Assembly: GCA_026396575.1 (NCBI GenBank)
Contig: JAPLWM010000007.1
Span: 11,546-75,545, forward strand
DNA length: 64,000 nt
Direction: 5' to 3'
DNA from: Candidatus Komeilibacteria bacterium
Lineage (GTDB): Bacteria; Patescibacteriota; Patescibacteriia; UBA1558; UBA10009
How positions within the stretch are numbered: position 1 is the first letter of the stretch; every line of letters starts with the position of its first letter. A program made the position numbers and the translations under genes. Below, piece after piece: positions 1-23,498 of the stretch. The notes beneath the pieces were generated by a model, which made no database searches, had not been told where the DNA came from, and saw only the letters and a program-made list of their open reading frames with translations.

Positions 1-1784
1 GCAACGCTTCATTTTTGGCTTCTTATCTGCTCTTTCATTTATTCATCGCCCTATTGTTTTTAGTGGAAAAAGCCGGTTTAAAATGGAAGTTTTATTACCT
101 GGCGGTTTTTATCGTTGATTTGGCGGTTTTACTGTTAACGGCTACCCGCGGCGCCCAATTGGCCCTATTCGCTTCGGTATTGGTTTTTATTATTTTTGTT
201 TTCGTTTTTAAAATTTGGCGGCAAAAAGCCATCAAGCTTCTTTTAGCCGGCTGTTTATTGCTGGCCGTTTTAATGGCCGTGGCTTTTATTTTTAAAAATA
301 CCGATTTGGTTAAAAATAATTATTGGCTGAGCCGCTTAACCTCTTATTCTTTCAGCGACAATACCGTGCAAACCAGATTGCACGCTTGGCGCTGGGGCTT
401 GGAGGGATTTAGGGATAATTTGCTGGTCGGCGTCGGTCCGGAAAATTTTCAGATTGTTTTTAATAAATATTTTCAGCCGGATTTTTATAATTATTCGGGC
501 AATGAAATTTGGTTTGACCGGGCGCATAATACCCTGGTGGACATGGCTTCAACCATGGGTATCTTCGGCCTGCTTAGTTACTTGGCTATTTTTGGCGCCA
601 TTGGGCTGGCGCTTTATAAATTATTCAAATCAGGCAATCTTTCGGCCTTGTCTTTCTTGATTATTTTCCTTTTATTTTTTTCTTATTTTATTCAAAATCT
701 CCTGGTTTTTGATTCTTTAAACAGCTTGATTGTTTTTTATTTAATTGTCGCTTATCTGGCTTATTTATTGGAAAGAACGGGCCAATTGCCGGGCAATAGC
801 CAGCTTAAACAGAGCCGTTGGCAGGTTAAGCCTTATTTTACCCTGCCTTTGGCCGGCGTTTTATTTTTAGTTTTGTTTTTTACCGTTAATTTGCCGGAAA
901 TCAGGGCTAATAAATACGTTTACAACGCTTATATCGATTCCCAATACGGCCATTACCAGAAATCGGTTCAGGAATACAATCAGGTTCATCAGGTAGCCGT
1001 AAATCGGCTGGATCCGGCTATTTTATTATCTTCTTCTTTAAGCGAGATGATCGGCCAAAATCCTAAAATTGCTGCCGCCGCCGTGGAAGTTGCGGATATA
1101 AAAAAAGCGATCGGCTGGCTGGACGAAGCGATTTCGCTTGATCCGAAAAACATGTTTCTTTATTATTTGCAGACTAAAAATTACATGGCCTTAACCGAGC
1201 TAACGCAGGACGTGAAATATTTGGAAAAAGGCCTGGAATTTGCCGATAAATCAATGGAACTGCGTCCGGGTGAAGTTAGAAATTACTGGGTTTTGGCCCA
1301 GCTTTATCTTTACGGCAGCCAGCCGGAAAAAGCCCTGACTTATCTGGAACAAGCTCAAAAAATGAATGACCGGCTGCCGGAAACATATTTTTATCTTTCC
1401 GTGGTTTATCAAAGCATGGGCAATCAGGAAAAATATTTTAACGAAACCGACCAAATGATTGATCATAATTTTGAATTCTTTTCCGCCGACCAGGTTAAAA
1501 AATTAATTCCTCATTATGACGAGCGGAAAGATTTAAGAAGATTGATTTATTTATATTCTAAATTAACCGGGCTGCAGCCGCAAGAGCCCAATTATTGGCT
1601 GGATTACGTTAATCTGCTGGCCCAGGATAAGCAATATGATCGAGCCTTGAAAGCCCTGCAAGAGGCCGCCGGTGCCATCCCGGCTTTTAGCAGCCGCGCT
1701 TACGGGCGGTATCAGGAAATTTTGCAGTTAAAAGAAACCGGAACAACTGCCGCTGGTAATTTAAGCACCACTACGCCTAATTAA
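1..1784 (+). CDS. O-antigen ligase (Wzy_C/WaaL-like) polytopic membrane domain fused to C-terminal TPR repeats. 5' end truncated by the window edge; the frame is open to position 3.
   Basis: The motif RAHNTLVDMASTMGIFGLL matches the Wzy_C periplasmic loop signature (H-N-x-x-L...E/D-x-G), with multiple TM helices before and after it. The C-terminal 300 aa are TPR-like helical repeats. There is no in-frame stop upstream of the TTG at 15, so the gene starts outside the window. Confidence 0.65.
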   Translation, partial: NASFLASYLLFHLFIALLFLVEKAGLKWKFYYLAVFIVDLAVLLLTATRGAQLALFASVLVFIIFVFVFKIWRQKAIKLLLAGCLLLAVLMAVAFIFKNTDLVKNNYWLSRLTSYSFSDNTVQTRLHAWRWGLEGFRDNLLVGVGPENFQIVFNKYFQPDFYNYSGNEIWFDRAHNTLVDMASTMGIFGLLSYLAIFGAIGLALYKLFKSGNLSALSFLIIFLLFFSYFIQNLLVFDSLNSLIVFYLIVAYLAYLLERTGQLPGNSQLKQSRWQVKPYFTLPLAGVLFLVLFFTVNLPEIRANKYVYNAYIDSQYGHYQKSVQEYNQVHQVAVNRLDPAILLSSSLSEMIGQNPKIAAAAVEVADIKKAIGWLDEAISLDPKNMFLYYLQTKNYMALTELTQDVKYLEKGLEFADKSMELRPGEVRNYWVLAQLYLYGSQPEKALTYLEQAQKMNDRLPETYFYLSVVYQSMGNQEKYFNETDQMIDHNFEFFSADQVKKLIPHYDERKDLRRLIYLYSKLTGLQPQEPNYWLDYVNLLAQDKQYDRALKALQEAAGAIPAFSSRAYGRYQEILQLKETGTTAAGNLSTTTPN

Positions 1785-1794: not shown

Positions 1795-2481
1795 ATGATC
1801 CATTTTAAAAAAATCAAGAAAAAACATCGGTTCATTATTTTAGGCGCGATCGTTTTATTATTGTTAATTGGCGCTGTGATTTTATTTATTAAGCCAAAGG
1901 AAATTTTATCATTGCCGGTTTCCTTGGACGATCAAACTAAACAGACAATTAACCAGAGAATTGCCAAAGATTTGGAAATGCTCAAGCTTTTTCCCAAAGA
2001 TTATAATAACTTCATGGATTTAGGAAATTTGGAAGAACAAATTGGCAATGCCGGCCAGGCAATTGATTATTACCATCAGGCCTGGGAAACGATTCCGGCC
2101 AATAGCACCCCTTGGTTGAATATCGGCAATATTTATATTAAGTTGGGATTGCACGCTAAAGCCGAGCAAGCTTTTTTTGAGGCCAAAAAAGCTAATCCCG
2201 CTTATTATTTCGTTTATTTTAATATCGCCAAGTTGTATGAGGATTATTTGCCGGCCAAGGCGGATCAAATAAGAACTGTTTATTTGGAGGGCTTAAAAAA
2301 TACCAGTAACGATTACCAATTACTGCAGCCTTTTACCGATTATTTAATTGCCATTAAAAATTATTCCGAGGCCTTGGAGTACCTTAATGTGTTGTTTCAA
2401 AAAATTCCGGCGGAAAACAAGCAGGATGTTTTAAACAGAATCAAGGAAGTTGAGGGTTTAATGAAACAGCCGGCAACTTAG
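1795..2481 (+). CDS. TPR-repeat protein with an N-terminal signal-anchor.
   Basis: N-terminal hydrophobic helix (FIILGAIVLLLLIGAVILFI) followed by TPR-like 34-aa repeats (W/LG/Y/A/F/A/P spacing). Confidence 0.55.
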   Translation: MIHFKKIKKKHRFIILGAIVLLLLIGAVILFIKPKEILSLPVSLDDQTKQTINQRIAKDLEMLKLFPKDYNNFMDLGNLEEQIGNAGQAIDYYHQAWETIPANSTPWLNIGNIYIKLGLHAKAEQAFFEAKKANPAYYFVYFNIAKLYEDYLPAKADQIRTVYLEGLKNTSNDYQLLQPFTDYLIAIKNYSEALEYLNVLFQKIPAENKQDVLNRIKEVEGLMKQPAT

Positions 2482-2484
2482 ATT

Positions 2485-4536
2485 ATGATTAAATTTAAAC
2501 TGCGGCTAAAAATTGCTATTTTAAGTTTAGCTTTTTTTGTTTTGTCCGGCAATTTGGCAATGGCGCAGGGAGCGGAAGTTTATCCCAATGACCCTTATTT
2601 AAAACAGCAGAATTATTTGCAACAAATCAACGCTTTGGCCGCTTGGTCCGCCATTAAGGAGAGTCCGGAAATAACGGTGGCGGTAATTGACAGCGGCGTG
2701 GATATTAATCATCCGGATCTGGTTGATAATATCTGGCATAACCCGGATGAAATTCCCGGCGACGGCCTGGATAACGATCATAACGGCTACGTTGACGATA
2801 CGGTGGGCTGGGATTTTATTTTAAACAGCCCGGATCCCAAGCCGAAATTTATCGGCGGGTACTCTAAATTGGGCATTGACCACGGCACGATTGTGGCCGG
2901 AGTAATCGGGGCGACGGGCAATAATAATTTCGGACTGGCCGGCTTATCCTGGAAAATTAAAATTATGCCATTAAGAGTTATGGATGGTAAAGGCATTGGC
3001 CAGACAGACGCGGTTTATCGGGCGATAAAATACGCCATTGATAAAAAAGCGGATATTATCAATTTAAGCATGGTCGGATCGGAATTTGACCCCAAGCTGG
3101 ATCAAGTGATTGCCGAGGCCTACCGGCAAGGCATTATAATCGTGGCGGCGGCCGGCAACGAAACCAACACCGAGGATTTGCAGGACGATTTCAGCTTGAA
3201 TTTGGCTTTGCATCCCCAGTATCCGATTTGCCACGACGGGGGCGAAGGGCATAATTATGTTTTAGGCGTGGGCGCGGTTGACGGTTTAGACCAAAAATCC
3301 CGTTTTTCCAATTATGGCTCCAAATGTTTGGATTTGGTGGCGCCTGGCGAAAGCTTCTTCGGCACTTTGTTTTATGATCCGGCCAAGCCCGATTTTAATA
3401 AATATTTCGGCGGTTATTGGTCCGGCACTTCTTTGGCCGCGCCGCAGGTTTCGGCAGCCGCCGCCCTGGTTAAGGCCTTGCGTCAGTCTTTAACCAACGG
3501 CGAAATTTACGATTTGCTTATAAAAAACAGTGATAATATTGATGCCTCTAACCCAACTTTTCAGGGCCTCTTAGGCGGCGGCCGATTAAATTTGGCCAAA
3601 GTAATGGCCGCGGCGGCAGCAACGCCTAAACAGGGTTTATCATTAATTCTCTCTCCGGCCGGAAAATTCGTTCCCCAGGTATTAACGGTTAATGAATCCG
3701 GCCAAGAACAAGGAAATTTTTTGGCTTACGATAAGAATTTTTTGGGCGGGGTTGATTTGGCTTCAGCCGATCTTAATAACGACGGTCAGAAAGAAATTAT
3801 TACTGGCGCCGGAACCGGCGGCGGGCCGCAAGTGCGGATTTTTAAAAGCGACGGTCAGGTTATAGGGCAGTTTTTTGCTTATGATAAGAAATTTAACGGG
3901 GGCATAAATATAGCCGCCGGCGATCTTGATGGCGACGGAGTCGTGGAAATTATCACCGCGCCTTTGGGCAAACTGGCGTCCCAAATTAAAATTTTTGATT
4001 CCGCGGGAAAATTAAAAAGCCAATTTTTGGCTTACGATAAGAATTTTTTGGGCGGAGTTAATTTGGCTTTAAGCGATATTAATGCAGACGGGATCAAGGA
4101 AATTGTGACTGCGCCCGGGCCTGGTAGCGCGCCGCTGGTTAAAGTTTTCAACGGTTCGGGCAAGTTGCTGGAAAATTTTCTAGCTTATGACAATAATTTT
4201 AAGGGCGGCGTGAAAGTGGCATCGGCTGATCTTTACGGCGATCAAAGAACCGAAATTATTACCGTGCCCGCCGGCAATTTTAAGCCGCAAGTTAGATTAT
4301 TTTCACCGGCCGGGGATATAGATTTACAATGGTTGGCGGCCGCGGCGGATTATTCAGGCGGTTTAAATTTAACAGCCGCGGGTCTTGAAAATAATAGCCC
4401 AGCGCAAATTATTATCAGCCAAAACGCCGGCGGCACCAGTGAAATAAAATTTTTTACGATTTTAGGGCAATTAACCCAAAGCTTCCCGGTTTGGGCAGGC
4501 GTTTATGGCGGCAACATTGATTTAACCGTTAAATGA
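2485..4536 (+). CDS. Secreted subtilisin-like serine protease (peptidase S8) with C-terminal FG-GAP repeats.
   Basis: Signal peptide, then the catalytic triad motifs AVIDSGVD (Asp), HGTIVAGVIGA (His) and GTSLAAPQVSAAAAL (Ser). The C-terminal third carries five or six repeats of FLAYDKNFxGGVxxAxxDxNxDGxxEIxT, which read as FG-GAP / integrin-alpha-like calcium-binding blades. Confidence 0.85.
   Translation: MIKFKLRLKIAILSLAFFVLSGNLAMAQGAEVYPNDPYLKQQNYLQQINALAAWSAIKESPEITVAVIDSGVDINHPDLVDNIWHNPDEIPGDGLDNDHNGYVDDTVGWDFILNSPDPKPKFIGGYSKLGIDHGTIVAGVIGATGNNNFGLAGLSWKIKIMPLRVMDGKGIGQTDAVYRAIKYAIDKKADIINLSMVGSEFDPKLDQVIAEAYRQGIIIVAAAGNETNTEDLQDDFSLNLALHPQYPICHDGGEGHNYVLGVGAVDGLDQKSRFSNYGSKCLDLVAPGESFFGTLFYDPAKPDFNKYFGGYWSGTSLAAPQVSAAAALVKALRQSLTNGEIYDLLIKNSDNIDASNPTFQGLLGGGRLNLAKVMAAAAATPKQGLSLILSPAGKFVPQVLTVNESGQEQGNFLAYDKNFLGGVDLASADLNNDGQKEIITGAGTGGGPQVRIFKSDGQVIGQFFAYDKKFNGGINIAAGDLDGDGVVEIITAPLGKLASQIKIFDSAGKLKSQFLAYDKNFLGGVNLALSDINADGIKEIVTAPGPGSAPLVKVFNGSGKLLENFLAYDNNFKGGVKVASADLYGDQRTEIITVPAGNFKPQVRLFSPAGDIDLQWLAAAADYSGGLNLTAAGLENNSPAQIIISQNAGGTSEIKFFTILGQLTQSFPVWAGVYGGNIDLTVK
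3700..4310 (+). repeat. Coding tandem repeats of about 120 bp (FG-GAP blades) inside the S8 protease gene.
   Basis: The peptide unit FLAYDKNFLGGV..A..DLN.DG..EIIT recurs five to six times in frame. Confidence 0.7.
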
Positions 4537-5018
4537 TTGATAAAATTTTTAACAATTCGGCGCTGCCTAAAGGTTTAATCTTAAGGGTTTTAAACAGATA
4601 TTTTTTCCGCTTCCCAGTTTTAAAACAGTTTATTAAATTTTCCTTGGTGGGCGTGGTCAATACTTTGATCGATTTTTCGATTTTTTTTATTTTAACCAGA
4701 ACCAGCCCATGGTTTAAAGCCAATTATTTAGCGGCTAACGCCATCGGTTTTTCTTTAGCTGTTACCAATAGCTTTTGGTTGAATAAAAAATGGACTTTTC
4801 AAGATCGGAATAAAACCAAGCTAACGAGGCAATATTTGAAATTTTTCGGCTTAAATTTTATGATTTTAATCATTACCGAGATTTGCCTTTATTATTTAAT
4901 TCAACATTTGAACGTTTATGATTTATTGGCTAAAGTTTTAATTGTTTTAATCAGCGTAATTATCAATTTTTTTATCAGCCGAAGCTTTATTTTTCCCAGC
5001 ATGACCCCTTCGGGGTAA
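4533..5018 (+). CDS. gtrA: GtrA-family membrane protein (polysaccharide synthesis / flippase-like).
   Basis: 161 aa with 4 TM helices. It has the FSLVGVVNTLIDF motif and NKKWTFQD, both characteristic of the GtrA family. It overlaps the upstream stop as ATGA. Confidence 0.7.
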   Translation: MIDKIFNNSALPKGLILRVLNRYFFRFPVLKQFIKFSLVGVVNTLIDFSIFFILTRTSPWFKANYLAANAIGFSLAVTNSFWLNKKWTFQDRNKTKLTRQYLKFFGLNFMILIITEICLYYLIQHLNVYDLLAKVLIVLISVIINFFISRSFIFPSMTPSG

Positions 5019-5031
5019 TTCTTAAATTTTC

Positions 5032-5060
5032 TTGCCAAAATTGGCTTTTTTAGTTATAAT
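5032..5060 (+). promoter_or_regulatory. Candidate sigma70-type promoter: TTGCCA, 17 nt spacer, TATAAT.
   Basis: TTGCCA at 5032-5037 and TATAAT at 5055-5060 with a 17 nt spacer, 16 nt upstream of the ATG at 5077. Confidence 0.45.
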
Positions 5061-5076
5061 TTGCTAAGTTCTTCAT

Positions 5077-5802
5077 ATGAATTTAAGCGTAGTCATCCCG
5101 GCTTTTAACGAAGAAAGCTGCTTAGTTTCCACTTTATCTCAAATTTACGGTTACTTTAACAATCGGCCAAATGGACTAGCCCGGTTAGCCGAAGTTATCG
5201 TGGTTGACGACGGTTCAACCGACCAAACGGCTGCGATAGTAAAAAACGCCGGTTTTGCAAATTTAAAGCTTATTTCGCACCGGCAAAATTTGGGCAAAGG
5301 CGCGGCCGTTAAAACGGGGGTAAAGGCCTCAATCGGCGAGGCGGTTTTATTCTTGGATGCCGATTATTCAACGAAAATTGAAGAGTTGGATAATTTTTTG
5401 CCAAAGTTGAATGAGTGTTGGGACATTATTATCGGCTCCCGGGGAATGCCAGATTCGCGAATTTTAAAGAGCCAACCAATATTTAAAGAGCTGCTTGGCA
5501 GATTGGGCAATTTATTGATTCGGTTGTTGGCGGTTCCGGGCGTGGCCGACAGCCAATGCGGCTTTAAGCTGTTTAATCGAAGGTCTTTGGCAATTTTTAA
5601 TCAGCAGACGATCCAGCGGTGGCTGTTTGACGTAGAATTATTGTTTATCGCCAAAAAATATGATTTTAAGATGCTAGAATTGCCCGTGGCTTGGACCAAT
5701 GATCGGTTTTCCAAAGTAAAAAAAAGCGATTATTTAAAAACTTTAATTGAACTTGTTAAAATAAGATTAAATGATTTAAAAGGACTTTATGAAAAAAAAT
5801 AG
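5077..5802 (+). CDS. Family 2 glycosyltransferase, polyprenyl-phosphate sugar transferase type (DPM/GtrB-like).
   Basis: VVIPAFNEE, VVDDGSTD and the DAD motif. At 241 aa it is a soluble catalytic domain only. It sits immediately downstream of gtrA. Confidence 0.75.
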   Translation: MNLSVVIPAFNEESCLVSTLSQIYGYFNNRPNGLARLAEVIVVDDGSTDQTAAIVKNAGFANLKLISHRQNLGKGAAVKTGVKASIGEAVLFLDADYSTKIEELDNFLPKLNECWDIIIGSRGMPDSRILKSQPIFKELLGRLGNLLIRLLAVPGVADSQCGFKLFNRRSLAIFNQQTIQRWLFDVELLFIAKKYDFKMLELPVAWTNDRFSKVKKSDYLKTLIELVKIRLNDLKGLYEKK

Positions 5803-6811
5803 CCAGGGAAGAAAAAATATTTTAATTGTTGGCGGGGCGGGCTTTATCGGCTCGCATTTAGCCGAGGTTTTAATTAAGGATAATAACGTTATCTGTTTGG
5901 ATAATTTTGTTACCAGCAACATGGAAAATATCCGCTGGCTGCTCTCTAACCCTCATTTTGAATTCATTAAGCACGATTTAACCGTAACCCTTAATTTAGC
6001 CGAATTGCCGGAATTGAAAAAATTTCAGCTGCCGGTTTTCGGCCTGCAGGAAATTTACAATTTGGCCTGCCCGACTTCGGCCAAAAATTTCGATAAATTA
6101 ACGGTGGAAACCGCTTTGGCCAATTCGGTTCTGGTAAAGAACGTTCTGGATTTGGCTTTAAAATATAAAGCCAAGCTGCTGCACGCTTCTTCGGCCGTGG
6201 TTTACGGCCCCAGGCAAAGCAACAATTACGTTAAAGAGGATTACCAAGGGCTGGTTAATTTTACCGGTCCCCGAAGCTGTTATGATGAAGGCAAGCGCTT
6301 TGCCGAAAGCTTAATCAGCACTTACCGGCAGTTTTACAAGCAGGATTTTAAAATCGCTAGAATTTTCAGGACCTATGGCCCGCGGCTGGCCTTAAACGAC
6401 GGCCAGATGATTTCCGATTTTATTTTTAACGCTTTGGATAACAAGGATTTGGTAATTTACGGTGACAAGAATTTTTCCACCGCCTTGTGCTATATCGACG
6501 ATCTGGTGGACGGCTTGCTTAAATTGATGGCCAGCTCCATTACCGAACCGGTTAATTTCGGCAGCAACGTTGATACGCTCTTAACCGAGGTGGCGGCTAA
6601 AATCATCAAGTTAACCGGCTCCGGTTCCAAAATCGTTTACCAGCCGAGTTTGGATTTTATCACTTCCTTAACTTTGCCGGATATTACTTTGGCCAAGTCG
6701 CATTTGGGCTGGTATCCTTTGGTCAGCTTGGATAAGGGTTTGGAAAAAACTTTGGAATATACCCGGGCCAATAAACAATTATTAACCAGCATCATTAATC
6801 ATAATAATTAA
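5789..6811 (+). CDS. NAD-dependent epimerase/dehydratase, UDP-glucuronate decarboxylase (UXS)-like paralog.
   Basis: Rossmann motif [10 protein letters not shown], then [18 protein letters not shown] and [10 protein letters not shown], the UXS/ArnA-type signature blocks. The block around the catalytic Tyr is divergent (SSAVVYG). Confidence 0.6.
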
Positions 6812-6824
6812 TTTTAAAGATCAA

Positions 6825-7982
6825 ATGTCCAAATACATTTTTACTTCGGAATCGGTAACCGAAGGCCATCCGGATAAAGTTTGCGACCAAATTTCCGACG
6901 CTATTTTAGACGAATTAATCAAACAGGATCCCGATACTCATGCCGGCATCGAATGTTTGGCTACTACCGGTTTGGTCGTGGTAGCCGGCGAGGTTAGAAC
7001 CAAGGGTTATGCCGACATTGCCGGGCTGGTGCGCAAAACCATCAAGGAAATCGGCTATGACAATTCTTCCAACGGTTTTTCCGGCGATGATTGCGGCGTT
7101 ATCGTGGCTTTGGACGAGCAATCGCCTGATATTGCCCAAGGCGTGGATAAGGGCAAGGGCAAGTTTAAAGAGCAGGGCGCCGGCGACCAGGGCTTGATGT
7201 TCGGCTATGCCTGCCGGGAAACCAAAGAGTTAATGCCTTTGCCGCTGATGTTGGCCCATAAAATGGCCAAGCGTTTGGCCCAAGTGCGCAAAAACGGCAC
7301 TTTAAAATATCTTAGGCCGGATGGTAAAACCGAAGTAGCTGTGGAATATAATAATGGCAAGCCCACCAGAATTGATACGGTGGTAGTGGCGGCCCAGCAT
7401 AACGAAAATGTTTCCGAAGCTAAAGTGGCTAAAGATATCATTAAATACGTAGTTAAGCCGATTGGCGGCAAGTATTTGGACGCCAAAACCAGATATTTTA
7501 TCAATGCTACCGGCAAGTTCATTAAAGGCGGTCCGCCGGCCGATGCCGGCTTAACCGGCCGCAAGATCATCGTGGATACTTACGGCGGGCACGGTTCCCA
7601 TGGCGGCGGCTGTTTTTCCGGCAAAGACCCTTCCAAGGTTGACCGCAGCGCTTCGTATATGGCCCGTTACATTGCCAAAAATATCGTGGCTGCCGGACTG
7701 GCCGATAAGTGCGAAGTTCAGCTGGCTTACGTTATCGGCCGGGCCGAACCGGTAAGCGTTTTGGTGCAAACATTCGGCACCGGCAAACTGCCCAATGAGC
7801 GTTTGGAAAAAATCGTGCGCCAATATTTTCCTTTAAAACCCGCCGGCATTATCAAGCACTTAAAACTGCAGCGCCCGATTTACAAGCAAACCGCGGCATA
7901 CGGCCATTTTGGCAGAACGGAAACGGGCTTTACTTGGGAAAAAACGGATTTGGCGGCCAAATTAAGGAAATATTTAAAGTAA
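6825..7982 (+). CDS. metK: S-adenosylmethionine synthetase.
   Basis: The N-terminus [24 protein letters not shown] carries the hallmark GHPDK motif of MetK. 385 aa. Confidence 0.9.
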
Positions 7983-8897: not shown

Positions 8898-9854
8898 ATG
8901 CGGATATTGGTAACCGGCGGGGCGGGTTTTATCGGCTCGCATTTAATTGATTATTTAATGGCCCAGGGGCATCGGGTAATAGCCGTTGATAATTTTTTAA
9001 GCGGCAAAAAGGCCAATATCGCCCGGCATTTCCACAATCCCAATTTTAAATTTATCAAGCACGATATTTCTTTGCCCTTAAATGCCAAACTTGGCCCGCT
9101 GGATCAGATTTACAATTTGGCCTGTCCGGCTTCACCGCTGCAGTATCAAGTAAATCCTTTAAAAACCTGGCAAACCAATGTTTTCGGCACGGGCTTGATG
9201 CTGGAATTGGCCCGTAAAAATTCCGCTCGCCTGTTGCAGGCCTCCACTTCCGAAGTTTACGGCGACCCCAAGGAACATCCCCAAAAAGAATCCTATTTCG
9301 GCAATGTTAATCCGCTGGGCGATCGCTCTTGCTACGACGAAGGCAAGCGCGCGGCCGAAACGCTTTGCTATATTTATCGCGCCAAGTATAAAACAGACGT
9401 TAAAATCGCCCGGATTTTTAATACTTACGGGCCGAGAATGATTTTCAGCGATGGCCGGGCTTTGCCGAATTTTATCAAGCAGGCCTTAACCAATGAGCCA
9501 TTAACGATTTTTGGCAGCGGCCGGCAAACCCGCAGCTTGATGTACATTGACGATTTAATCTTAGGCTTGGTTAAATTAATGAATCGCCCTAATTTTTTCG
9601 GGCCGGTTAATTTGGGCAATCCCAATCAGGAAATCAATATTTTGGCTTTGGCAAAAAAGACCATCAAACTTTGCCATTCTAAAAGTCAGCTGAAATTTCA
9701 AGCTTTGCCCGAAGATGATCCGATCAAACGAAGGCCGGCGATTGCTTTGGCCAAAAAAACCCTGGGTTGGTCGCCCGGAGTCAGTTTGGAGCAAGGGCTT
9801 AAAGCGACGATCAAGGATTTTAAAGCCCGGCTTAATAATCCAGCGGCAAAATGA
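8898..9854 (+). CDS. uxs: UDP-glucuronate decarboxylase (UDP-xylose synthase).
   Basis: [44 protein letters not shown] and ARIFNTYGPRM give a near-textbook UXS motif set. Start is the ATG at 8898. Confidence 0.8.
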   Translation: MRILVTGGAGFIGSHLIDYLMAQGHRVIAVDNFLSGKKANIARHFHNPNFKFIKHDISLPLNAKLGPLDQIYNLACPASPLQYQVNPLKTWQTNVFGTGLMLELARKNSARLLQASTSEVYGDPKEHPQKESYFGNVNPLGDRSCYDEGKRAAETLCYIYRAKYKTDVKIARIFNTYGPRMIFSDGRALPNFIKQALTNEPLTIFGSGRQTRSLMYIDDLILGLVKLMNRPNFFGPVNLGNPNQEINILALAKKTIKLCHSKSQLKFQALPEDDPIKRRPAIALAKKTLGWSPGVSLEQGLKATIKDFKARLNNPAAK

Positions 9855-11011
9855 ATAAGCGGATTTTAATTTATGCCACAGCGTACCTGCCCTTGGTTGG
9901 CGGCGCCGAAGTGGCGGTTAAGGAAATTACCGATCGCCTAGCAGGCTATGATTTTGATTTGATTACCGCTTTAATGGATAAAAAATTAGCCAGAGCGGAA
10001 AAAATCGGCCGAGTGAATGTTTACCGCCTGGGCTGCGGCTGGCCGAAATTTGATAAATTATATTTAGCGCTGTTCGGGCATTATAAGGGCTGGCAATTGC
10101 ATCGGCAAAAAAAATATGACCTGGTTTGGGCAATTATGGCCAGTTTTGGCGGTTTTGCCGCTTTAAGCTTTAAATTAAAAACAAAAATTCCTTATTTATT
10201 GACTTTACAGGAAGGCGATCCGATCGAGGAAATTTTAAATAAAGTTAAATTGGTCAGAGGCAGATTCAATGAGATTTTTATCGCTTCCGACGCTTTGCAG
10301 CCCATCAGCAGCTATTTGGCCGCTTGGGGCGAAAAAATGGGGTTTGCCGGTAAAATTAGCGAAGTTATCCCCAATGGCGTTGATGTCGGTTTATTTACCA
10401 AAGAATATTTTAAAGAAGAAATCGGCGCTTTAAGACGCAGTTTCGGTTTTCCGGCCGATTCGGTTATTGCGGTAACATCTTCCAGATTGGTAATAAAAAA
10501 CGGCGTGGGCGACGTTATTAAGGCCTTAAAAAATTTACCGGCCGATTTTTGTTTTTATATCTGCGGCAGCGGGCCTTTGGAAAACAAGTTAAAACAATTA
10601 ACTGAAGATTTGCATTTGGAGCAAAGGGTAAAATTCGGCGGTTATAAAAGCCACGATGAATTGCCGAAAATCCTCAAGGCCGGCGATATTTTTATCAGGC
10701 CTTCCCTCAGTGAAGGTTTGGGCAATTCTTTTTTGGAAGCCATGGCCGCGGGTTTGCCAACCATCGGCACTTTAGTCGGGGGCATTCCCGATTTTTTAAT
10801 TGAAGGCCAAACCGGTTTGGTTTGCCAGCCCGGCGATAGCCAAAGCATCGGCGAAACAATTTTAAGGGCCAGCCGCCTGTCGGTTGAAGAAAAAAAACGG
10901 CTGCACCGCAATGCCCTTATCCTGGTTAAAGAAAAATATAACTGGGACTGCGTTGTCGCCCGTTTGGATTTATTATTCAATCGATTATTAAATAGCAAAA
11001 ACAATTTATGA
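9851..11011 (+). CDS. Family 4 (GT-B) glycosyltransferase.
   Basis: C-terminal EGLGNSFLEAMAAGLPTIGT (the E-x7-E GT4 motif). Confidence 0.75.
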   Translation: MNKRILIYATAYLPLVGGAEVAVKEITDRLAGYDFDLITALMDKKLARAEKIGRVNVYRLGCGWPKFDKLYLALFGHYKGWQLHRQKKYDLVWAIMASFGGFAALSFKLKTKIPYLLTLQEGDPIEEILNKVKLVRGRFNEIFIASDALQPISSYLAAWGEKMGFAGKISEVIPNGVDVGLFTKEYFKEEIGALRRSFGFPADSVIAVTSSRLVIKNGVGDVIKALKNLPADFCFYICGSGPLENKLKQLTEDLHLEQRVKFGGYKSHDELPKILKAGDIFIRPSLSEGLGNSFLEAMAAGLPTIGTLVGGIPDFLIEGQTGLVCQPGDSQSIGETILRASRLSVEEKKRLHRNALILVKEKYNWDCVVARLDLLFNRLLNSKNNL

Positions 11012-12291
11012 AAGTTACCATTATCGGCTTAGGTTACGTGGGCTTAGTAACCGCCGTCGGTTTGTCCGAGTTGGGGCACCAGGTCTTTGGCTGCGATACC
11101 GACCCGCAGAAGATCGCTTCTTTAAAAAAGGGCCAAGTGCCGTTTTACGAACCCGGCTTGGATAAGCTGCTCAAAAAAAATTTTAAGAGCGGCCGTTTGG
11201 TTTTTACCGCTAATTTGGCAGAGATTATAAATCAAGCCCCGATTATTTTTATTTGCGTGGGTACGCCGGCAGCCAAGAGCGGCCAAGCCGATTTAAGCTA
11301 TGTGGAGTCGGCCCTTAAAACCATCGCCCAAACGGCCAAGACCGGAAAAATCATCGTGATCAAAAGCACGGTGCCGGTGGGCACCAGTGAAAAATTTGAA
11401 AAACTCCTTAATCCTCATGGCCAAAAATTTCCTTTTATTTCCTGTTCGGAATTTTTACGGGAAGGCCTGGGGGTAAATGATTTTTTCCAACCTGACAGGA
11501 TTATCGTGGGCGCCACTCGGCGGGCTTTGGCTTTAAAAGTGCTTAATCTTTTTGCCAAAATCAAAACCATTAAGTTTATTACCAACCGGGAAACGGCGGA
11601 GTTGATTAAATACACGGCTAATTCCTTTTTGGCCATGAAAATTTCCTTTATCAACGAAATTGCCAATTTATGCGAAAAAGTGGGCGCCGATGTTATGGAC
11701 GTGGCTTGGGGCATCGGTTTGGATAAGCGGATCAATCCTTTATGGCTTAAAGCGGGCATCGGCTATGGCGGCAGCTGTTTTCCCAAGGATGTTTGGGCTT
11801 TGCGGCGGATTGCCGAAAACGCCGGCTATGATTTTAAAATTTTAAAATCGGTGATCGAGGTTAATCAAAGGCAATCCGAATTATTCATTAAAAAAATCCA
11901 AGGGCATTTCGGCCAGCTTAATGGTTTAACCATCGGGGTTTTGGGCCTGGCTTTTAAAAACGATACCGATGATATCAGGGATTCGGTGGCTTTAAGGGCG
12001 ATTGAACAATTAGTTAGTTTGGGCGTAAAAGTGAAAGCTTATGATCCGCTGGCCATGCCCAATGCCAAAAAGTTTTTTGCGCCTAAAATAACTCTCTGCC
12101 ATTCGGCCGGAGAGGTGTTTAAAAATTCTCGAGCCGTGGTTATTGCCACCGAATGGCCGCAGTTTAAAAATCTGCCTTGGCAAAAATTTGGCCGGAGCCT
12201 GAAAGAGCGCGTAATTTTTGACGGTAAGAATTTATTGGATCCGGCAACCATGGAAAAATTAAAGTTTAAGTATTATTCAATCGGCCGATGA
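11008..12291 (+). CDS. ugd: UDP-glucose 6-dehydrogenase.
   Basis: MKVTIIGLGYVGL NAD-binding N-terminus and the GGSCFPKD catalytic-Cys motif. 427 aa. Confidence 0.85.
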   Translation: MKVTIIGLGYVGLVTAVGLSELGHQVFGCDTDPQKIASLKKGQVPFYEPGLDKLLKKNFKSGRLVFTANLAEIINQAPIIFICVGTPAAKSGQADLSYVESALKTIAQTAKTGKIIVIKSTVPVGTSEKFEKLLNPHGQKFPFISCSEFLREGLGVNDFFQPDRIIVGATRRALALKVLNLFAKIKTIKFITNRETAELIKYTANSFLAMKISFINEIANLCEKVGADVMDVAWGIGLDKRINPLWLKAGIGYGGSCFPKDVWALRRIAENAGYDFKILKSVIEVNQRQSELFIKKIQGHFGQLNGLTIGVLGLAFKNDTDDIRDSVALRAIEQLVSLGVKVKAYDPLAMPNAKKFFAPKITLCHSAGEVFKNSRAVVIATEWPQFKNLPWQKFGRSLKERVIFDGKNLLDPATMEKLKFKYYSIGR

Positions 12292-12947
12292 AAACCTTTA
12301 TCGTTATTCCTTGTTATAACGAAGCCGAGCATTTGGCCAAAGTTATCGCGGCGGTTAAACCTTACGGCCAAGTGGTGCTGGTGGACGACGGTTCCACCGA
12401 CCAAAGTTTTAACATTGCCAAAAATTGCGGAGTAATTGTTTTGCGCCATCTGGTTAACCGCGGCATGGGCGCGGCTTTGGAAACGGGGGATAGCTACGCA
12501 TTTAAGCACGGCGCTGATGTGGTTGTTCATTTTGATGCCGACGGCCAGCATCTGGCCGAAGAAATTCCCCGGGTTATAGAACCTATTAGCCAAGGAAAAG
12601 TTGACGTAGTTTTAGGTTCAAGGTTTTTAGATCCGGGCAATAACGTGCCTTTTCTAAAAAAACTGTTAATTTTAAAGCCGGCGATTTTATTTCAAAATTT
12701 ATTGCTGGGCGTTAAATTAACCGATGCCCATAACGGTTTCAGGGCTTTGTCCTACGCGGCGCTCTCTAAAATAAAAATCACTCAGGACGAATTCGCCCAT
12801 GCCACCGAAATTATAGAGCTTATCAAGGCTCATAATTTAAGGTATCAGGAAGTTCCCGTGACCGTTAAGTATCACGAATTCGGCCAGGGATTTTCCACCG
12901 GCTTGAAAATTTTAAAGGATTTGTTTTTTGGAAAAATTAACAGATAA
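12288..12947 (+). CDS. Family 2 glycosyltransferase (polyprenyl-phosphate sugar synthase-like).
   Basis: IVIPCYNEAEHL, VLVDDGSTD and DADGQH motifs. Confidence 0.75.
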   Translation: MKTFIVIPCYNEAEHLAKVIAAVKPYGQVVLVDDGSTDQSFNIAKNCGVIVLRHLVNRGMGAALETGDSYAFKHGADVVVHFDADGQHLAEEIPRVIEPISQGKVDVVLGSRFLDPGNNVPFLKKLLILKPAILFQNLLLGVKLTDAHNGFRALSYAALSKIKITQDEFAHATEIIELIKAHNLRYQEVPVTVKYHEFGQGFSTGLKILKDLFFGKINR

Positions 12948-12952: not shown

Positions 12953-13300
12953 ATGAACTATTTGCCTTTGCAGATTATCGTCAGTTTATTCGTTCTCTTG
13001 GTAATTTTTCGGTTAAGCAGAAAATTCAAGGACAGTATTTTAAAAACTTCTGAATTTATCGGCTGGCTGGTTATTTGGGCGGTGGTTTTAGTGGCGTTTT
13101 GGCTGCCCAATACCGCTTCTTACTTGGCTTTATTGGTGGGTATTGGCCGCGGCGTGGATTTGGCGGTTTACTCGGCTATTTTAATTATCTTTTATTTGAT
13201 TTTCCGCCTTTATTTAAAGCACGATAAGCAGCAGCAGCAAATTACCAAAATTATCAGGCATCTGGCTTTAAAAGAGGAGGATGAGAAAAAGCCGCAATAA
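12953..13300 (+). CDS. DUF2304-like small membrane protein (usual partner of GT2 enzymes).
   Basis: 115 aa with 3-4 TM helices and the motif GIGRGVDLAVYSAILIIFYLIFRLY, which I recognise from DUF2304 proteins that routinely follow DPM-like GT2 genes. Confidence 0.55.
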   Translation: MNYLPLQIIVSLFVLLVIFRLSRKFKDSILKTSEFIGWLVIWAVVLVAFWLPNTASYLALLVGIGRGVDLAVYSAILIIFYLIFRLYLKHDKQQQQITKIIRHLALKEEDEKKPQ

Positions 13301-14328
13301 TGAAAAAAGTCGCCATCTTAATCGTTAATTATAACGGCCAGCAGTATCTCCCGGACCTTTTGGAGAGTGTTTTTAAATATAGGCCCCAAAGCGTTTTTTT
13401 TGAAACGATCGTGGTGGATAACGCTTCAATTGATGATTCCGTTGCCTGGCTGGTTAAAAATTATCCGCAAGTTACCTTGCTTAAACAATCGGAAAATTTC
13501 GGTTTTGCCGGAGGCAACAATATCGGCATTAAATACGCTTTAAATAAGGGTTATGATTACGTGATGCTGTTAAATCAGGATACCGTTGTCAGCCAGGGCT
13601 ATTTGGATAAATTAATCGAAAAAATCGAAGCGGTGCCTGCTGCGGCGGCCGTTCAGCCCAAATTATTGCTTTACCCTTTAACCGATTTGGTCAACAGTTT
13701 GGGCAACGTGATTCATTATTTGGGTTTTGGCTATACGGCCGCTAAACCGATTTTAAATAACGAGGTTAATTACTGTTCCGGCGCGGCTTGCTTGATTTCC
13801 GCGGCGGCTTTTAAAAAAGTCGGCTTATTTAACGAAGAGCTGTTTATGTACCATGAGGATTTGGATTTGGGCTGGCGCTTCCGCTTAAGGGGCTATAAAA
13901 ATTTAGTGGAGCCAAAAAGCGCGGTTTACCATAAATACGAATTTTCCCGCAGCATTAAGAAATATTATTTTTTGGAAAGAAACCGCTTTATGGTAATATT
14001 GCAGAATTACAAAATAGGCACCTTGGTTTTAATTTTACCGGCTTTAATTTTAATGGAGCTGGGTTTATTTCTCTTTTCTTTTAGCAACGGCTGGTGGCTG
14101 GAAAAATTGAAAGTTTATCGGTATTTTTTCAGTTTAAAAAATTGGCAAAAAATATTTAAAACTAGAAAACAGATTCAAGGCCATAGAAGCCGGCCGGATC
14201 GCTTGATTGTTAAGGATTTTGCCGGCACCATCGAGCATCAGGAAATTAATTCGCCTTTGGTTGCTTGCTTAGTTAACCCGCTGTTTAACGCTTATTGGCG
14301 GATAATTAAGCCGTTAATTTTATGGTAA
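13300..14328 (+). CDS. Family 2 glycosyltransferase (GT-A, rhamnosyltransferase-like).
   Basis: AILIVNYNGQQYL, VVDNASIDDS and QDT motifs, with C-terminal TM helices. Confidence 0.7.
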   Translation: MKKVAILIVNYNGQQYLPDLLESVFKYRPQSVFFETIVVDNASIDDSVAWLVKNYPQVTLLKQSENFGFAGGNNIGIKYALNKGYDYVMLLNQDTVVSQGYLDKLIEKIEAVPAAAAVQPKLLLYPLTDLVNSLGNVIHYLGFGYTAAKPILNNEVNYCSGAACLISAAAFKKVGLFNEELFMYHEDLDLGWRFRLRGYKNLVEPKSAVYHKYEFSRSIKKYYFLERNRFMVILQNYKIGTLVLILPALILMELGLFLFSFSNGWWLEKLKVYRYFFSLKNWQKIFKTRKQIQGHRSRPDRLIVKDFAGTIEHQEINSPLVACLVNPLFNAYWRIIKPLILW

Positions 14329-15482
14329 TGGAGCAAAAGCTTAAAATCGCCCAAGTGGTTTCCACTTTTCCGCCTTATCGCGGCGGCATGGGCAACGTCG
14401 CTTTTAATTTGGCCGATAATTTAAGCCGCTTGGGCTATGAAGTGACGGTTTTTTCGCCGCAACGGCATTTCGGCCATTTAAATCTTGACAGTTATTTTAA
14501 AATCCATAGATTACAGCCGCAATTAAGGTACGGCAATGCCGCCGTAGTTTTGCAATTATTTTTTTATCTTTTAAAGTATGACATCGTTCATTATCATTAC
14601 CCTTTTTTAGGCGCTTCCTTAGCCACCACTCTGGCTAAGCTGATTAAAGGCAAGAAACAGAAATTAATCGTGCATTATCATATGGATTTAGTCGGCCAGG
14701 GTTGGAAAGCCGCCATTTTTAAAATATACAACTGGTCGCATTTGCGCGGCTTATTTTTAATCGCCGATAAAATTATCGTGACTTCCGATGATTATTTGAC
14801 TAAATCCTTAATTTATCCCCTGGCCCAAAAATATTGGGAGAAATTTTGCATTTTGCCCAACGGCGTTAACCTTGATTATTTTAAGCCAGCTGCCAAAGAT
14901 CCGGCTTTAACCCATAAATACCAGCTTAAAGACAAAAAGGTCATTTTATTCGTTGGCGCCCTGGACAGCGCCCATTATTTTAAGGGCGTCAATTATCTAA
15001 TCAAGGCGATGGAAAATTTAAGCCGAGAGGATATTAAACTGATTATCGTGGGCGAAGGCGAGTTAAGGTCGGTTTATGAAGATATGGTTAATTCTTACGA
15101 TTTAAACAATCGGGTAATTTTTACCGGCTACGTGCCCGACGAAGAATTGGTTAAGTTTTATAATCTGGCCGATATTTTCGTTCTGCCTTCCATTGATAAA
15201 ACCGAGGCCTTTGGCATGGTTTTACTGGAAGCCATGGCTTGCGCCAAGCCGGTGGTGGCTTCCAGCTTGCCGGGCGTGAGGGAAGTGGTGGAAGTAAAAA
15301 AGAACGGCCGTTTGTTCAAGCCTAAAGATGTGGCCGGTTTGGTGGAGCAATTGAACGTTTTGCTTAACCAGCCGGAGTTAGCCAAGGAATACGGGCTATA
15401 CGGCCGGGCCAAGGTGGAGGCCTGTTACAGCTGGTCGAAAATTACCGAGGAGCTGTTAAAAATCTACCAAGCCGATTTATGA
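14322..15482 (+). CDS. Family 4 glycosyltransferase.
   Basis: EAFGMVLLEAMACAKPVVAS (E-x7-E motif) and an N-terminal Glyco_trans_4-like domain. Confidence 0.75.
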   Translation: MVMEQKLKIAQVVSTFPPYRGGMGNVAFNLADNLSRLGYEVTVFSPQRHFGHLNLDSYFKIHRLQPQLRYGNAAVVLQLFFYLLKYDIVHYHYPFLGASLATTLAKLIKGKKQKLIVHYHMDLVGQGWKAAIFKIYNWSHLRGLFLIADKIIVTSDDYLTKSLIYPLAQKYWEKFCILPNGVNLDYFKPAAKDPALTHKYQLKDKKVILFVGALDSAHYFKGVNYLIKAMENLSREDIKLIIVGEGELRSVYEDMVNSYDLNNRVIFTGYVPDEELVKFYNLADIFVLPSIDKTEAFGMVLLEAMACAKPVVASSLPGVREVVEVKKNGRLFKPKDVAGLVEQLNVLLNQPELAKEYGLYGRAKVEACYSWSKITEELLKIYQADL

Positions 15483-16687
15483 GATTTTGCCTGATTAACA
15501 ACTTATATCCGCCCATTGATCGTGGCGGCGCCGAGCGGATTGTGGAATTGATCGCTGAAGAGCTTAAAAAGCGCGGCGAAGTTTTAGTGATTACTTCACA
15601 GCCGGATTGGCTATTGGATCGCCAGAAAATCGGCGATTTTGAAATTTGCCGGCTTAATCCTTTGAATATTTATCATCTTTTGGAAGCTAATAAGCAAACT
15701 GCCAGGCGCAAGCTTCTTTGGCATTTTAATGATTTATTCAAGCGGCCCGTTTTGCATCAGGTTGGAAAAATTTTAAGCGAGAAACCGGTTGATTTTGTTT
15801 TCACCCATAATTTAAAAGGCTTAAGTCTGGGCATTCCCAAGATTATCCGTAAATTGAAATTAACCCAGATCCACACCCTTCACGATTATCAGCTTTTGGA
15901 CCCGCACGGTTCTTTGCACCGCCAGGGCCAAAATTTGGCCTTAAAACACGGCTTTTATCCTTTATACAGGTATTTCACCAGGCAAGCCATAAAATCGCCC
16001 AGCTTGGTTGTTTCGCCCTCCAAATTCGTTTTGGACAAGCACTTGGAGTATGGATTTTTTAAGAAGTCCAAAACCGTTGTTTTGCCTAATCCCGTAGAAT
16101 TGTCTGGTGCTGAATTGCAATTACCCAAGGTTGTTAGCGATAAATTAAGAATTTTATATTTAGGCCAGATCGAACCCCATAAAGGCGTAAAATTTTTAGT
16201 TGATTCTTTTGTAAAATGGAATAATGCCAATGCCGAATTAACCATTGCCGGCGAGGGGAGCGAGTTGCAAAAAATCAATGAATCAATGAATCAAAAAATC
16301 AATGAATCGGCCAGATCAAGGATTAAAATTTTAGGGAAAGTGGCCAGGGAGAAGTTGCCGGAGTTATTCGCCGCCGCCGATTTATTGGTGGTGCCTTCAA
16401 TGTGGTGGGAAAATTCGCCCACGGTAATTTACGAGGCCTACGGTTATCAAGTGCCTGTTTTAGTTGCCAATACCGGCGGAGCTCCGGAATTGGTAAAAAA
16501 CGGAACAACCGGTTTTATTTTTACAGCCGATAATCAGGAAGATTTAATTGATAAATTAAATGCGGCTTTGAAACAAAAGGACAAATTGCCTGAACTTGGC
16601 AAACAGGGTTATGAATTCATTAAACATTTCGAGGTTAAAAATTATGTGGATAAATTATTGGAGTTATGCCAAACTTTGAAGAAATAA
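15479..16687 (+). CDS. Family 4 glycosyltransferase.
   Basis: ENSPTVIYEAYGYQVPVLVANTGGAPELV. It contains an in-frame micro-repeat KINESMNQKINES at 16268-16300. Confidence 0.7.
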   Translation: MRFCLINNLYPPIDRGGAERIVELIAEELKKRGEVLVITSQPDWLLDRQKIGDFEICRLNPLNIYHLLEANKQTARRKLLWHFNDLFKRPVLHQVGKILSEKPVDFVFTHNLKGLSLGIPKIIRKLKLTQIHTLHDYQLLDPHGSLHRQGQNLALKHGFYPLYRYFTRQAIKSPSLVVSPSKFVLDKHLEYGFFKKSKTVVLPNPVELSGAELQLPKVVSDKLRILYLGQIEPHKGVKFLVDSFVKWNNANAELTIAGEGSELQKINESMNQKINESARSRIKILGKVAREKLPELFAAADLLVVPSMWWENSPTVIYEAYGYQVPVLVANTGGAPELVKNGTTGFIFTADNQEDLIDKLNAALKQKDKLPELGKQGYEFIKHFEVKNYVDKLLELCQTLKK

Positions 16688-17562: not shown

Positions 17563-17568
17563 ACTATA

Positions 17569-20035: not shown

Positions 20036-20183
20036 AGCTATATTTTACCACAATTTACCCCAGTTTGTCTTTTAAGGCATTTTCTAGTAAAATTAAGGCA
20101 ATTAATCAGTTAAATTAAGCAGAATTATCTCCATTTTTAAAAGAAAAATCGCGATTGACTGGCAGTTCCTGGTTCTACTCGTT

Positions 20184-22600: not shown

Positions 22601-22605
22601 ATTTT

Positions 22606-23476: not shown

Positions 23477-23498
23477 TTTTTAAATAGAGAATTAATTT

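Follow-up and report, generated by a model that had tools for sequence, protein, structure and literature searches.

Within the 64-kb stretch of DNA analysed here (the window), which derives from a metagenome-assembled genome of Candidatus Komeilibacteria (Patescibacteria, also known as candidate phyla radiation or CPR), the region from position 1 to about 29.8 kb probably constitutes a single cell-surface glycopolymer cluster, including parts of a pathway by which sugars linked to lipid monophosphates serve for decoration outside the cell. Two GT2 glycosyltransferases of this cluster, referred to as GT2a (5077-5802) and GT2b (12288-12947), are putative synthases of such lipid-linked sugars, whereby GT2b is followed by the gene of a small DUF2304 membrane protein. 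Two further proteins, one of them GT39-like and the other a 699-amino-acid (aa) protein, were read as transferases of the GT-C fold, and a third GT2, which is rhamnosyltransferase-like, is referred to as GT2c. GT2a has 100% identity to a protein annotated in a Candidatus Komeilibacteria metagenome-assembled genome, and the 699-aa and GT39-like proteins were located on the contig which carries it. The gene order of the cluster was found to be identical in three further Komeilibacteria-like contigs (L087, L088 and L089), with protein identities of 52-60%, and large portions of the arrangement recur in 80 metagenome loci; it is therefore not a chance pattern. An earlier reading of the same DNA, made from its letters alone (the original prediction), had named the families GtrA, GT2, GT-C, Wzy_C and DUF2304, all of which were matched in searches with hidden Markov models (HMMs), namely by PF04138, PF00535, PF13231, PF04932 and PF10066.

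GT2b (219 aa, plus strand) is a PpgS- or GacI-like GT2 (PF00535, E-value 4.4e-23), whose closest relatives in the Protein Data Bank (PDB) are the dolichyl-phosphate mannose synthase (DPMS) of Pyrococcus furiosus (PfDPMS, 4.4e-16) and then ArnC, the FDADGQ motif of GT2b being aligned with the DADLQ motif of PfDPMS. When compared to the NCBIfam models, GT2b matched PpgS (NF058614) over its full length with 1.6e-48 and 165 bits, the equivalog cutoff being 370 bits, and ArnC with 40 bits as compared to a cutoff of 529. The DUF2304 gene starts 5 nucleotides (nt) after GT2b (12953-13300, plus strand) and encodes a 115-aa protein with three transmembrane (TM) helices, which belongs to the GacJ/Rv3632 family (PF10066, 1.9e-23, 83.2 bits, cutoff 25.5). 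For Streptococcus pyogenes, GacJ was reported to be a DUF2304 protein of 113 aa with three helices, whose gene directly follows gacI; it co-purifies with GacI, brings the Km of GacI for undecaprenyl phosphate down to 1.1 uM (18.7 uM without GacJ) and raises Vmax about 340-fold (bioRxiv 10.1101/180810). Rv3632 was reported to act on PpgS as GacJ does on GacI, and the lipid-linked sugar to be used extracellularly by the GT-C enzymes GacL and Rv3779 (bioRxiv 10.1101/180810; PMC9671496). Among 85 Patescibacteria loci, a GT2b-type gene lies directly upstream of the DUF2304 gene in 33 of 33 cases, with gaps of -19 to 160 nt. Judged by this invariable pairing and by the GacJ/Rv3632 precedent, GT2b and the DUF2304 protein are a polyprenyl-phosphate-sugar synthase of the characterised two-subunit GacI/GacJ (PpgS/Rv3632) type, with the DUF2304 protein as the predicted activator subunit. 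The original prediction, which had a second DPM-like GT2 at 12288 followed by a DUF2304-like small membrane protein, was hence right as to both families, yet the latter is not a mere partner but a member of an activator family.

GT2a (241 aa, plus strand, PF00535 with 3.8e-24) is a soluble, ALG5- or DPMS-like GT2 and, considering its relatives, a probable polyprenyl-phosphate hexose synthase. Its best PDB relatives are ArnC (1.4e-11), PfDPMS (6.4e-11) and GtrB (6.5e-9), whereby all of the top seven are polyprenyl-phosphate glycosyltransferases, and its best NCBIfam model is again PpgS with 71 bits compared to the equivalog cutoff of 370, ArnC (NF007986) yielding 55 compared to 529. Enzymes of the GtrB/ArnC subtype carry C-terminal TM helices. 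By hydropathy, such helices are absent from both synthases, as GT2a possesses no hydrophobic segment but amphipathic helices at 134-151 and 218-235, and GT2b possesses one marginal segment (1.65) which is located inside the catalytic domain. Among 30 homologues, the DxD motif of GT2a shows no variation at D94 and D96 and at least 90% conservation at A95, and a DxQCGFKL motif is invariant or nearly so. Homologues of GT2a number in the thousands, are about 235-240 aa long without a membrane domain, and many of them are labelled dolichyl-phosphate beta-glucosyltransferase by their source. A scan of GTDB genomes with the single GT2a protein returned no confirmed relatives, and an alignment-based scan covering one genome per species returned 573 relatives from many phyla, of which 80 loci were kept. 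At several of these loci a large polytopic gene adjoins the GT2a homologue, and seven of the nine neighbours tested, all from other phyla, were found to belong to GT-C families (five PMT_2, one YfhO and one GT87), as is expected for a synthase of lipid-linked donors. In four Streptomyces loci (L023, L037, L058 and L066, at about 9700-12400), the GT2a-type domain was found within open reading frames (ORFs) of about 800-900 aa; in the 898-aa ORF of L023, the Pfam match is confined to the GT2 part and the long C-terminal part is unannotated.

The GT39/PMT_2-like GT-C transferase is encoded on the plus strand at 20124-21791, the ORF having been listed from a TTG at 20184 onwards (PF13231 PMT_2, 8.2e-14). 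Its sequence has no match in the PDB, and its GT-C fold was recognised by fold comparison. As predicted originally for 20184-21791, it carries a DE motif in the first loop and is divergent from the gene of the 699-aa protein: the residues NSPDET occupy positions 28-33, and an alignment of 35 sequences shows no variation at P30, D31 and N35 and at least 90% conservation at E32, the general motif being NSPDE(T/A)AN directly after TM1. Further conserved motifs were identified as PRS (64-66), RTSE (190-193), YGSW (340-343), SYxRYWLP (359-366) and DKxFFP (450-455). All homologues retrieved in the search derive from Patescibacteria and are GT39 by NCBI naming. The listed TTG start sits inside TM1, whereas homologues begin about 20 aa earlier with a basic stretch ahead of this helix. 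An in-frame stretch beginning KRKIAIDW (KRKIAIDWQFLVLLVL, window 20106-20184) matches these N-termini and contains no ATG, GTG or TTG, wherefore the ATT at 20124 is the likely start, and both the NCBI model (524 aa) and the mechanically derived ORF (535 aa) seem too short. As KRK precedes TM1, the positive-inside rule predicts the DE loop to lie outside the cytoplasm; with this placement, and with the GtrA and GT-C signatures being present, neither of the two outcomes named originally as refuting the prediction arose. True PMTs possess a MIR domain in loop 5, and the oligosaccharyltransferases (OSTs) STT3, AglB and PglB carry a WWDYG motif after their last TM helix. The GT39-like protein matches PF13231 only among the Pfam families, lacking MIR and PF02366, and, despite the fold similarity, WWD is absent from both the 535-aa and the 699-aa sequence; the GT39-like GT-C is therefore neither a true PMT nor an OST.

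The 699-aa protein, encoded on the minus strand at 17936-20035, has no match in NCBIfam or in Pfam, in the latter case even at E<=1, and its homologues are without exception hypothetical proteins of Patescibacteria. When 1.84 billion cluster representatives were searched with a profile, 1,563 family members were identified, 1,022 of them at E<=1e-30; members are full length at 620-770 aa, and many are devoid of the first two helices. The AlphaFold2 model of the protein is of high confidence (pLDDT 90.8, pTM 0.91), and although Foldseek scores were weak, six matches with a probability of at least 0.96 were obtained, which comprise STT3, AftA, AglB and ArnT with yeast STT3 on top. Similarity to solved GT-C enzymes is seen at the fold level only, with 9-13% identity, whereby the C-terminal domain resembles the soluble domains of AglB and STT3. 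An aspartate, D211, is invariant within the motif FDPFIH and is the candidate catalytic residue; it opens a loop which follows the seventh helix and contains two short helices. Lysine and arginine are distributed such that, by hydropathy and the positive-inside rule, the N-terminus is predicted inside and the D211 loop outside. Taking the predicted structure as a basis, the protein is read as a GT-C transferase; its family is undescribed, is restricted to Patescibacteria and carries an N-terminal extension of about six or seven helices. With this assignment the locus would hold two synthases and two GT-Cs, so that the three-component set proposed originally (lipid-sugar synthase, flippase and periplasmic GT-C transferase) stands as to the kinds of components but not as one single set.

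The conservation of these genes was followed in a metagenome scan with the 699-aa family, in which 512 relatives were identified and 80 loci were taken; the synteny set comprised 85 loci. Genes were called with HMMs built iteratively from the window proteins; as these iterated models matched both synthases, GT2a and GT2b were told apart by single-sequence scoring. In 60 of the 63 loci with sufficient flank, the GT39-like GT-C gene divergently adjoins the 699-aa gene, and beside the former, the gene of a 268-aa protein was found in 55 and that of a 133-aa protein in 46 of the 85 loci. The other flank of the 699-aa gene is occupied by GT4-GT4-GT2c and, in 33 loci, additionally by DUF2304-GT2b. 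None of the 80 loci has a GT2a-type gene less than 10 kb away from the 699-aa gene.

From these families, folds, conserved motifs and gene orders, a reaction scheme was derived, which is favoured with moderate confidence. GT2a and GT2b would each transfer one sugar from a nucleotide sugar onto polyprenyl phosphate at the cytoplasmic face, a step for which GT2b is assumed to be in complex with the DUF2304 protein that would raise its lipid affinity as GacJ does for GacI. In parallel, a priming transferase, GT2c and the GT4 enzymes would build a rhamnose-containing chain on polyprenyl diphosphate. Next, GtrA may flip the polyprenyl-phosphate sugar or dock a soluble synthase on the membrane, the latter being the part played by the GtrA-like domain of archaeal type-III DPMS, the 133-aa protein being a speculative alternative carrier of lipid-linked sugars. 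At the outer face, the two divergently transcribed GT-Cs would put single sugars onto the polymer or onto protein, and the WaaL-TPR enzyme would finally ligate the chain to its acceptor. The acceptor of the GT-C sugars is most probably the rhamnose-containing polymer, to which the dTDP-rhamnose genes of the cluster point (RmlC-like at 23000-23476, RmlB at 26283-27284, RmlD at 27931-28749 and RmlA at 29104-29829, all on the plus strand). As two MreB paralogues, MreC and a PBP2-type transpeptidase are encoded at 49432-55219, a peptidoglycan wall is to be expected and rod-shape machinery exists in a CPR genome; the original prediction, in which the envelope architecture was left blank, can be completed in these two respects.

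Several observations weigh against this scheme. Neither GT2 reaches the NCBIfam equivalog cutoff (71 and 165 compared to 370 bits), and for this reason the sugar specificity of the synthases cannot be named. The acceptor could equally be a protein, neither a Wzx nor an ABC exporter that might carry the backbone was found inside the window, and all topologies were derived from hydropathy and the positive-inside rule. Furthermore, gtrA is absent from eight of the 17 loci which bear an S8 protease gene and retain both GT-Cs, and four loci (L139, L147, L157 and L166) keep the S8-gtrA pair and both GT-Cs with neither GT2b/DUF2304 nor GT2a within 10 kb, which renders GtrA neither strictly required nor tied to one particular synthase. 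Finally, a promoter-like site, itself conserved, lies between gtrA and GT2a.

The gtrA gene (4533-5018, plus strand) encodes a small membrane protein of 161 aa with about four predicted TM helices, which matches PF04138 (GtrA_DPMS_TM) with 1.5e-28 and 99.8 bits (cutoff 26.1) over profile positions 1-117 of 117. Its hydropathy profile reveals three clear helices and a weaker segment at about 64-86, with the N-terminus and the central loop being rich in lysine and arginine; GtrA proteins have their termini in the cytoplasm. Members of the family were reported to possess two to four TM helices (PMC12992685). Upstream, a secreted S8 subtilase with FG-GAP repeats is encoded at 2485-4536 on the plus strand (PF00082, 6.4e-46, FG-GAP, N-terminal signal-like segment), the stop codon TGA of which (4534-4536) overlaps the start codon ATG of gtrA (4533-4535) as ATGA. 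In agreement with the original prediction, gtrA is thus translationally coupled to the protease gene. Downstream, a spacer of 58 nt separates gtrA from GT2a and contains the site TTGCCA-17-TATAAT (5032-5060, plus strand), which is the best match (11/12) to a sigma-70-like consensus in 2300-6900, is promoter-like by this consensus match only and ends 17 nt ahead of the GT2a start. All three related contigs (L087, L088 and L089) carry a TTGnnA-17/18-TATAAT site in the corresponding spacer, and this conservation suggests that gtrA closes a ligase-TPR-protease unit while GT2a opens the next one. The pairing of gtrA with a DPM- or GtrB-like GT2, as proposed originally, hence holds as to gene order, solubility and family but is weak as a module, since the promoter-like site lies in between and the adjacency was found in four Komeilibacteria-like loci only. 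A widely conserved gtrA-GT2a pair was considered and rejected: outside Komeilibacteria, the combination occurs in three of the 80 loci with GT2a homologues, and there in the form of GT2-GtrA fusions. In the synteny set, gtrA is present in only 14 loci, with the S8 gene directly upstream in 12 of them (gaps of -127 to +14 nt), and this order holds whether or not GT2a is present. Locus variants comprise S8-gtrA-epimerase-GT2b-DUF2304, S8-gtrA-epimerase-GT2c without GT2b and DUF2304, and S8-epimerase-GT2b-DUF2304 without gtrA. The gtrA-GT2a adjacency, being restricted to Komeilibacteria-like loci, is therefore a lineage feature, and S8-gtrA is the older and wider adjacency; comparative synteny, which was proposed originally as a check, supports the arrangement as such, with the S8 gene and not the GT2 gene as the kept neighbour of gtrA.

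With regard to the role of GtrA, it was considered that the protein might be the detached membrane domain of a split synthase resembling type-III DPMS, which docks and activates GT2a or GT2b on the membrane, comparable to DUF2304 with GacI, whereby flipping would be left to another protein, e.g., the 133-aa protein. The single PDB sequence match of GtrA is the GtrA-like TM domain of PfDPMS (5mlz residues 253-370, E 4e-4), the Pfam family PF04138 is now titled GtrA/DPMS TM domain, and proteins of 371-386 aa in which a GT2 is fused to GtrA occur in Saccharibacteria, in Beckwithbacteria and at one other locus. Additionally, GT2a is without a TM segment and possesses amphipathic helices only, and the flippase role proposed for the M. 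tuberculosis GtrA protein Rv3789 has been challenged, GtrA-type flipping being unproven even for several characterised members (PMC12992685). However, the GT2 domains of the fusions are distant from GT2a and GT2b (48-87 bits), gtrA and GT2a are apparently located in separate transcription units, and the 133-aa protein showed no relationship to GtrA, DUF2304 or known transporters. Moreover, a crystal structure from 2026 revealed the GtrA-like TM domain of PfDPMS with flipped dolichyl-phosphate mannose bound, suggesting that this domain can itself flip the product (PMC12992685), and anchoring and flipping are consequently not mutually exclusive. Detachment to the exclusion of flipping is accordingly an explanation to be taken into account, albeit a rather improbable one, and GtrA may act as a flippase, may hold a soluble synthase at the membrane or may do both; of the flippase proposed originally, the family stands and the role is one candidate among these, as the same family also provides the membrane domain of archaeal type-III DPMS.

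Another explanation assumes that gtrA works together with the WaaL-TPR/TPR/S8 unit and not with either of the GT2 synthases, e.g., by recruiting or scaffolding enzymes of the outer face, so that its adjacency to GT2a would be the accident of a lineage-specific insertion. This idea draws on the prevailing S8 neighbourhood of gtrA with its ATGA overlap in the window, on the S8-gtrA-epimerase-GT2b order without GT2a in more distant Patescibacteria and on the conserved promoter-like site 3' of gtrA. Gene order alone, however, does not show function, gtrA is missing from nearly half of the S8-bearing loci (8/17), and two loci (L091 and L138) possess gtrA without an adjacent S8 gene. To our knowledge, no GtrA protein acts together with a protease and no functional link between the two has been described, which counts against such a unit, and we regard it as unlikely.

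As to the 699-aa GT-C, an OST-like or ligase-like enzyme was also considered, which would not add single sugars but take a glycan already assembled on polyprenyl diphosphate and hand it to a protein or to the wall. In support of this, STT3, AglB and PglB are among the best structural matches, with yeast STT3 as the top hit in Foldseek, and the gene always adjoins the GT2c-GT4-GT4 block of backbone enzymes. Yet its sequence contains neither a WWDYG nor a DK/MI motif, enzymes using lipid-monophosphate donors (AftA, ALG12, PMT and ArnT) score as well as OSTs against the model, the likeness to OSTs exists at the fold level only, and a dedicated WaaL-type ligase is already encoded in the cluster; such an activity of the 699-aa protein is regarded as unlikely, and its assignment as a second GT-C of the decoration pathway is kept. 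Finally, it is very improbable that GT2a is an ordinary cytoplasmic GT2 extending the polyprenyl-diphosphate-linked backbone. Its solubility, its matches to generic PF00535 and to sub-threshold NCBIfam models only, and its place as first gene of an operon that encodes nucleotide-sugar enzymes and a GT4 would fit such a role. Against a backbone transferase stand the top seven PDB relatives, all of them polyprenyl-phosphate glycosyltransferases, the source naming of its homologues as dolichyl-phosphate glucosyltransferases and the GT-C genes adjoining them in unrelated phyla (7/9).

When compared to characterised systems, the closest ones are, in this order, GacI/J/L together with PpgS/Rv3632/Rv3779, then the phage gtrABC cassette and then split or fused DPMS. 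GacI/GacJ/GacK/GacL provide the N-acetylglucosamine side chain of the group A rhamnopolysaccharide in S. pyogenes, and PpgS/Rv3632/Rv3779 provide the galactosamine on arabinogalactan in M. tuberculosis and C. glutamicum (bioRxiv 10.1101/180810; PMC9671496). In common with these, the window has a short soluble GT2 followed by an approximately 115-aa DUF2304 protein with three TM helices, a GT-C in the same cluster, dTDP-rhamnose genes, rhamnosyltransferase-like GT2 and GT4 enzymes and, here in the related contigs, a polyprenyl-phosphate priming transferase. It differs from them in the score of GT2b, which at 165 bits is well below the PpgS cutoff of 370, in a GtrA protein taking the place of Wzx-type GacK, which was not found in the window, in the presence of two GT-Cs, one of an undescribed family, and in its host being a Patescibacterium. 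By analogy, the cluster is reminiscent of the way in which Gram-positive bacteria synthesise a rhamnopolysaccharide and add its side chains outside the cell. The gtrABC cassette for serotype conversion is a contiguous gtrA-gtrB-gtr(type) operon. The O-antigen glucosylation cassettes of this kind from Shigella phages and Salmonella share three protein types with the window, namely a small membrane protein of the GtrA family, a GT2 resembling DPMS and a GT-C that is polytopic, as well as the principle of a lipid-monophosphate sugar made inside and used outside. In the window, however, the GT-C is located 15 kb from gtrA and not in a contiguous operon, the GT2 is devoid of the two C-terminal TM helices of GtrB, and gtrA is coupled to a protease gene with a promoter-like site preceding the GT2; the locus is therefore not a gtrABC cassette. 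For PfDPMS (PDB 5mlz), the catalytic domain aligns with GT2a (6.4e-11) and GT2b (4.4e-16) and the four-helix TM domain with GtrA (4e-4), whereas the catalytic and membrane parts are separate genes in the window. From the polar pocket of PfDPMS (PMC12992685), as read by the author from the alignment, only the asparagine N277 is kept in GtrA, while N248 corresponds to D47, R341 to N145 and F338 to V142. Compared to the GT39 and GT83 enzymes PMT and ArnT, the GT39-like GT-C lacks MIR, has no PDB match at the sequence level and was Patescibacteria-restricted in the search. The locus is best filed within the known class of three-component lipid-monophosphate glycosylation systems, with the 699-aa GT-C family as one new component, and no paper on these genes in CPR bacteria was found in the library searched.

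Patescibacteria account for a large share of bacterial diversity and spend their lives attached to other microbes, and hardly anything is known of the chemistry of their surface. The data given here point to a Gram-positive-style pathway, i.e., a rhamnose polymer decorated outside the cell from lipid-linked sugars, which is conserved across Patescibacteria, and offer candidate genes for surface glycans that may mediate host attachment or phage recognition. For a family of about 1,500 sequence clusters hitherto annotated as hypothetical only, a fold and a probable activity are now suggested. As all but the 699-aa family follow known paradigms, the result mainly improves annotation. A more far-reaching view, for which we see a slim chance, is that the GT39-like GT-C and the new family form a dual GT-C module conserved among Patescibacteria, divergently arranged and followed by two uncharacterised membrane proteins, in which the new family could be a novel type of lipid-linked glycan transferase, e.g., one which glycosylates proteins or the wall and is specific to these ultrasmall episymbionts, and that the coupling of gtrA to the S8 gene could mark a hitherto unrecognised link between surface proteolysis and glycosylation.

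With respect to the remaining genes of the cluster, the order starts with Wzy_C-TPR, the TPR protein, the S8 protease and GtrA, continues with GT2a, an epimerase, MetK, two epimerase/dehydratases, a GT4 and UDP-glucose dehydrogenase, and then with GT2b, DUF2304, GT2c, two GT4, a methyltransferase and a SET-domain protein, as assigned by Pfam. These are followed by the 699-aa protein on the opposite strand, the GT-C and the uncharacterised 268-aa and 133-aa proteins, and finally by the RmlC-like protein, HIT, PfkB, S-adenosylhomocysteine (AdoHcy) hydrolase, RmlB, an uncharacterised ORF, RmlD, another uncharacterised ORF and RmlA, the HIT, PfkB kinase and AdoHcy hydrolase genes thus being interspersed among the dTDP-rhamnose genes on the plus strand within 23000-29829. 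The WaaL/Wzy_C-type ligase fused to TPR repeats (15-1784, plus strand; PF04932 Wzy_C, 1.1e-21, and several TPR families) was recognised correctly in the original prediction as a WaaL-TPR fusion; its reading frame is open to position 3 and full-length homologues comprise 704-769 aa, so the window edge cuts off the 5' part of the gene. In the three related Komeilibacteria-like contigs, the ligase gene is preceded by a divergently oriented gene of a Bac_transf priming enzyme. The subsequent gene (1795-2481, plus strand) encodes a membrane-anchored TPR protein with one N-terminal TM helix, matched by TPR families, and its position is conserved in relatives. GT2c and two GT4 enzymes are encoded at 13300-16687 on the plus strand (Pfam), whereby GT2c matches the NCBIfam rhamnosyltransferase model TIGR01556 with 73 bits; the block is conserved beside GT2b-DUF2304 in relatives, and its predicted role is the cytoplasmic assembly of the polymer backbone. 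Downstream of the GT-C (21794-23007, plus strand), a 268-aa membrane-anchored extracytoplasmic protein and the 133-aa protein with four TM helices are encoded, neither of which had an informative match in Pfam, NCBIfam or the PDB, the 268-aa protein having none in Pfam even at E<=1. Counterparts of the former elsewhere in Patescibacteria are about 195 or 500 aa long. For the latter, a relationship to GtrA, DUF2304 or SMR proteins was rejected with hhalign probabilities <5%, a PDB profile search gave nothing meaningful and the Pfam matches were scattered single-member noise; as an alternative flippase candidate it is speculative.

Beyond these genes, an S-adenosylmethionine (SAM) synthetase, a SAM-dependent methyltransferase, a SET-domain protein and AdoHcy hydrolase are encoded within the glycan cluster (6825-7982, 16666-17939 and 24892-26148), and their embedding hints at methylated sugars or a methylated acceptor. 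A second glycan cluster was identified at 55122-62899, which contains a GT4, a Bac_transf priming transferase with a CoA-binding-like domain, another GT4 and more ORFs. Two tandem Peptidase_C39_2-like proteins adjoin a tRNA-Gln on the minus strand (36103-37578), and a class A RNase P RNA was found at 57164-57666 on the same strand, its 503 nt compared to a 367-position model implying sizeable insertions.

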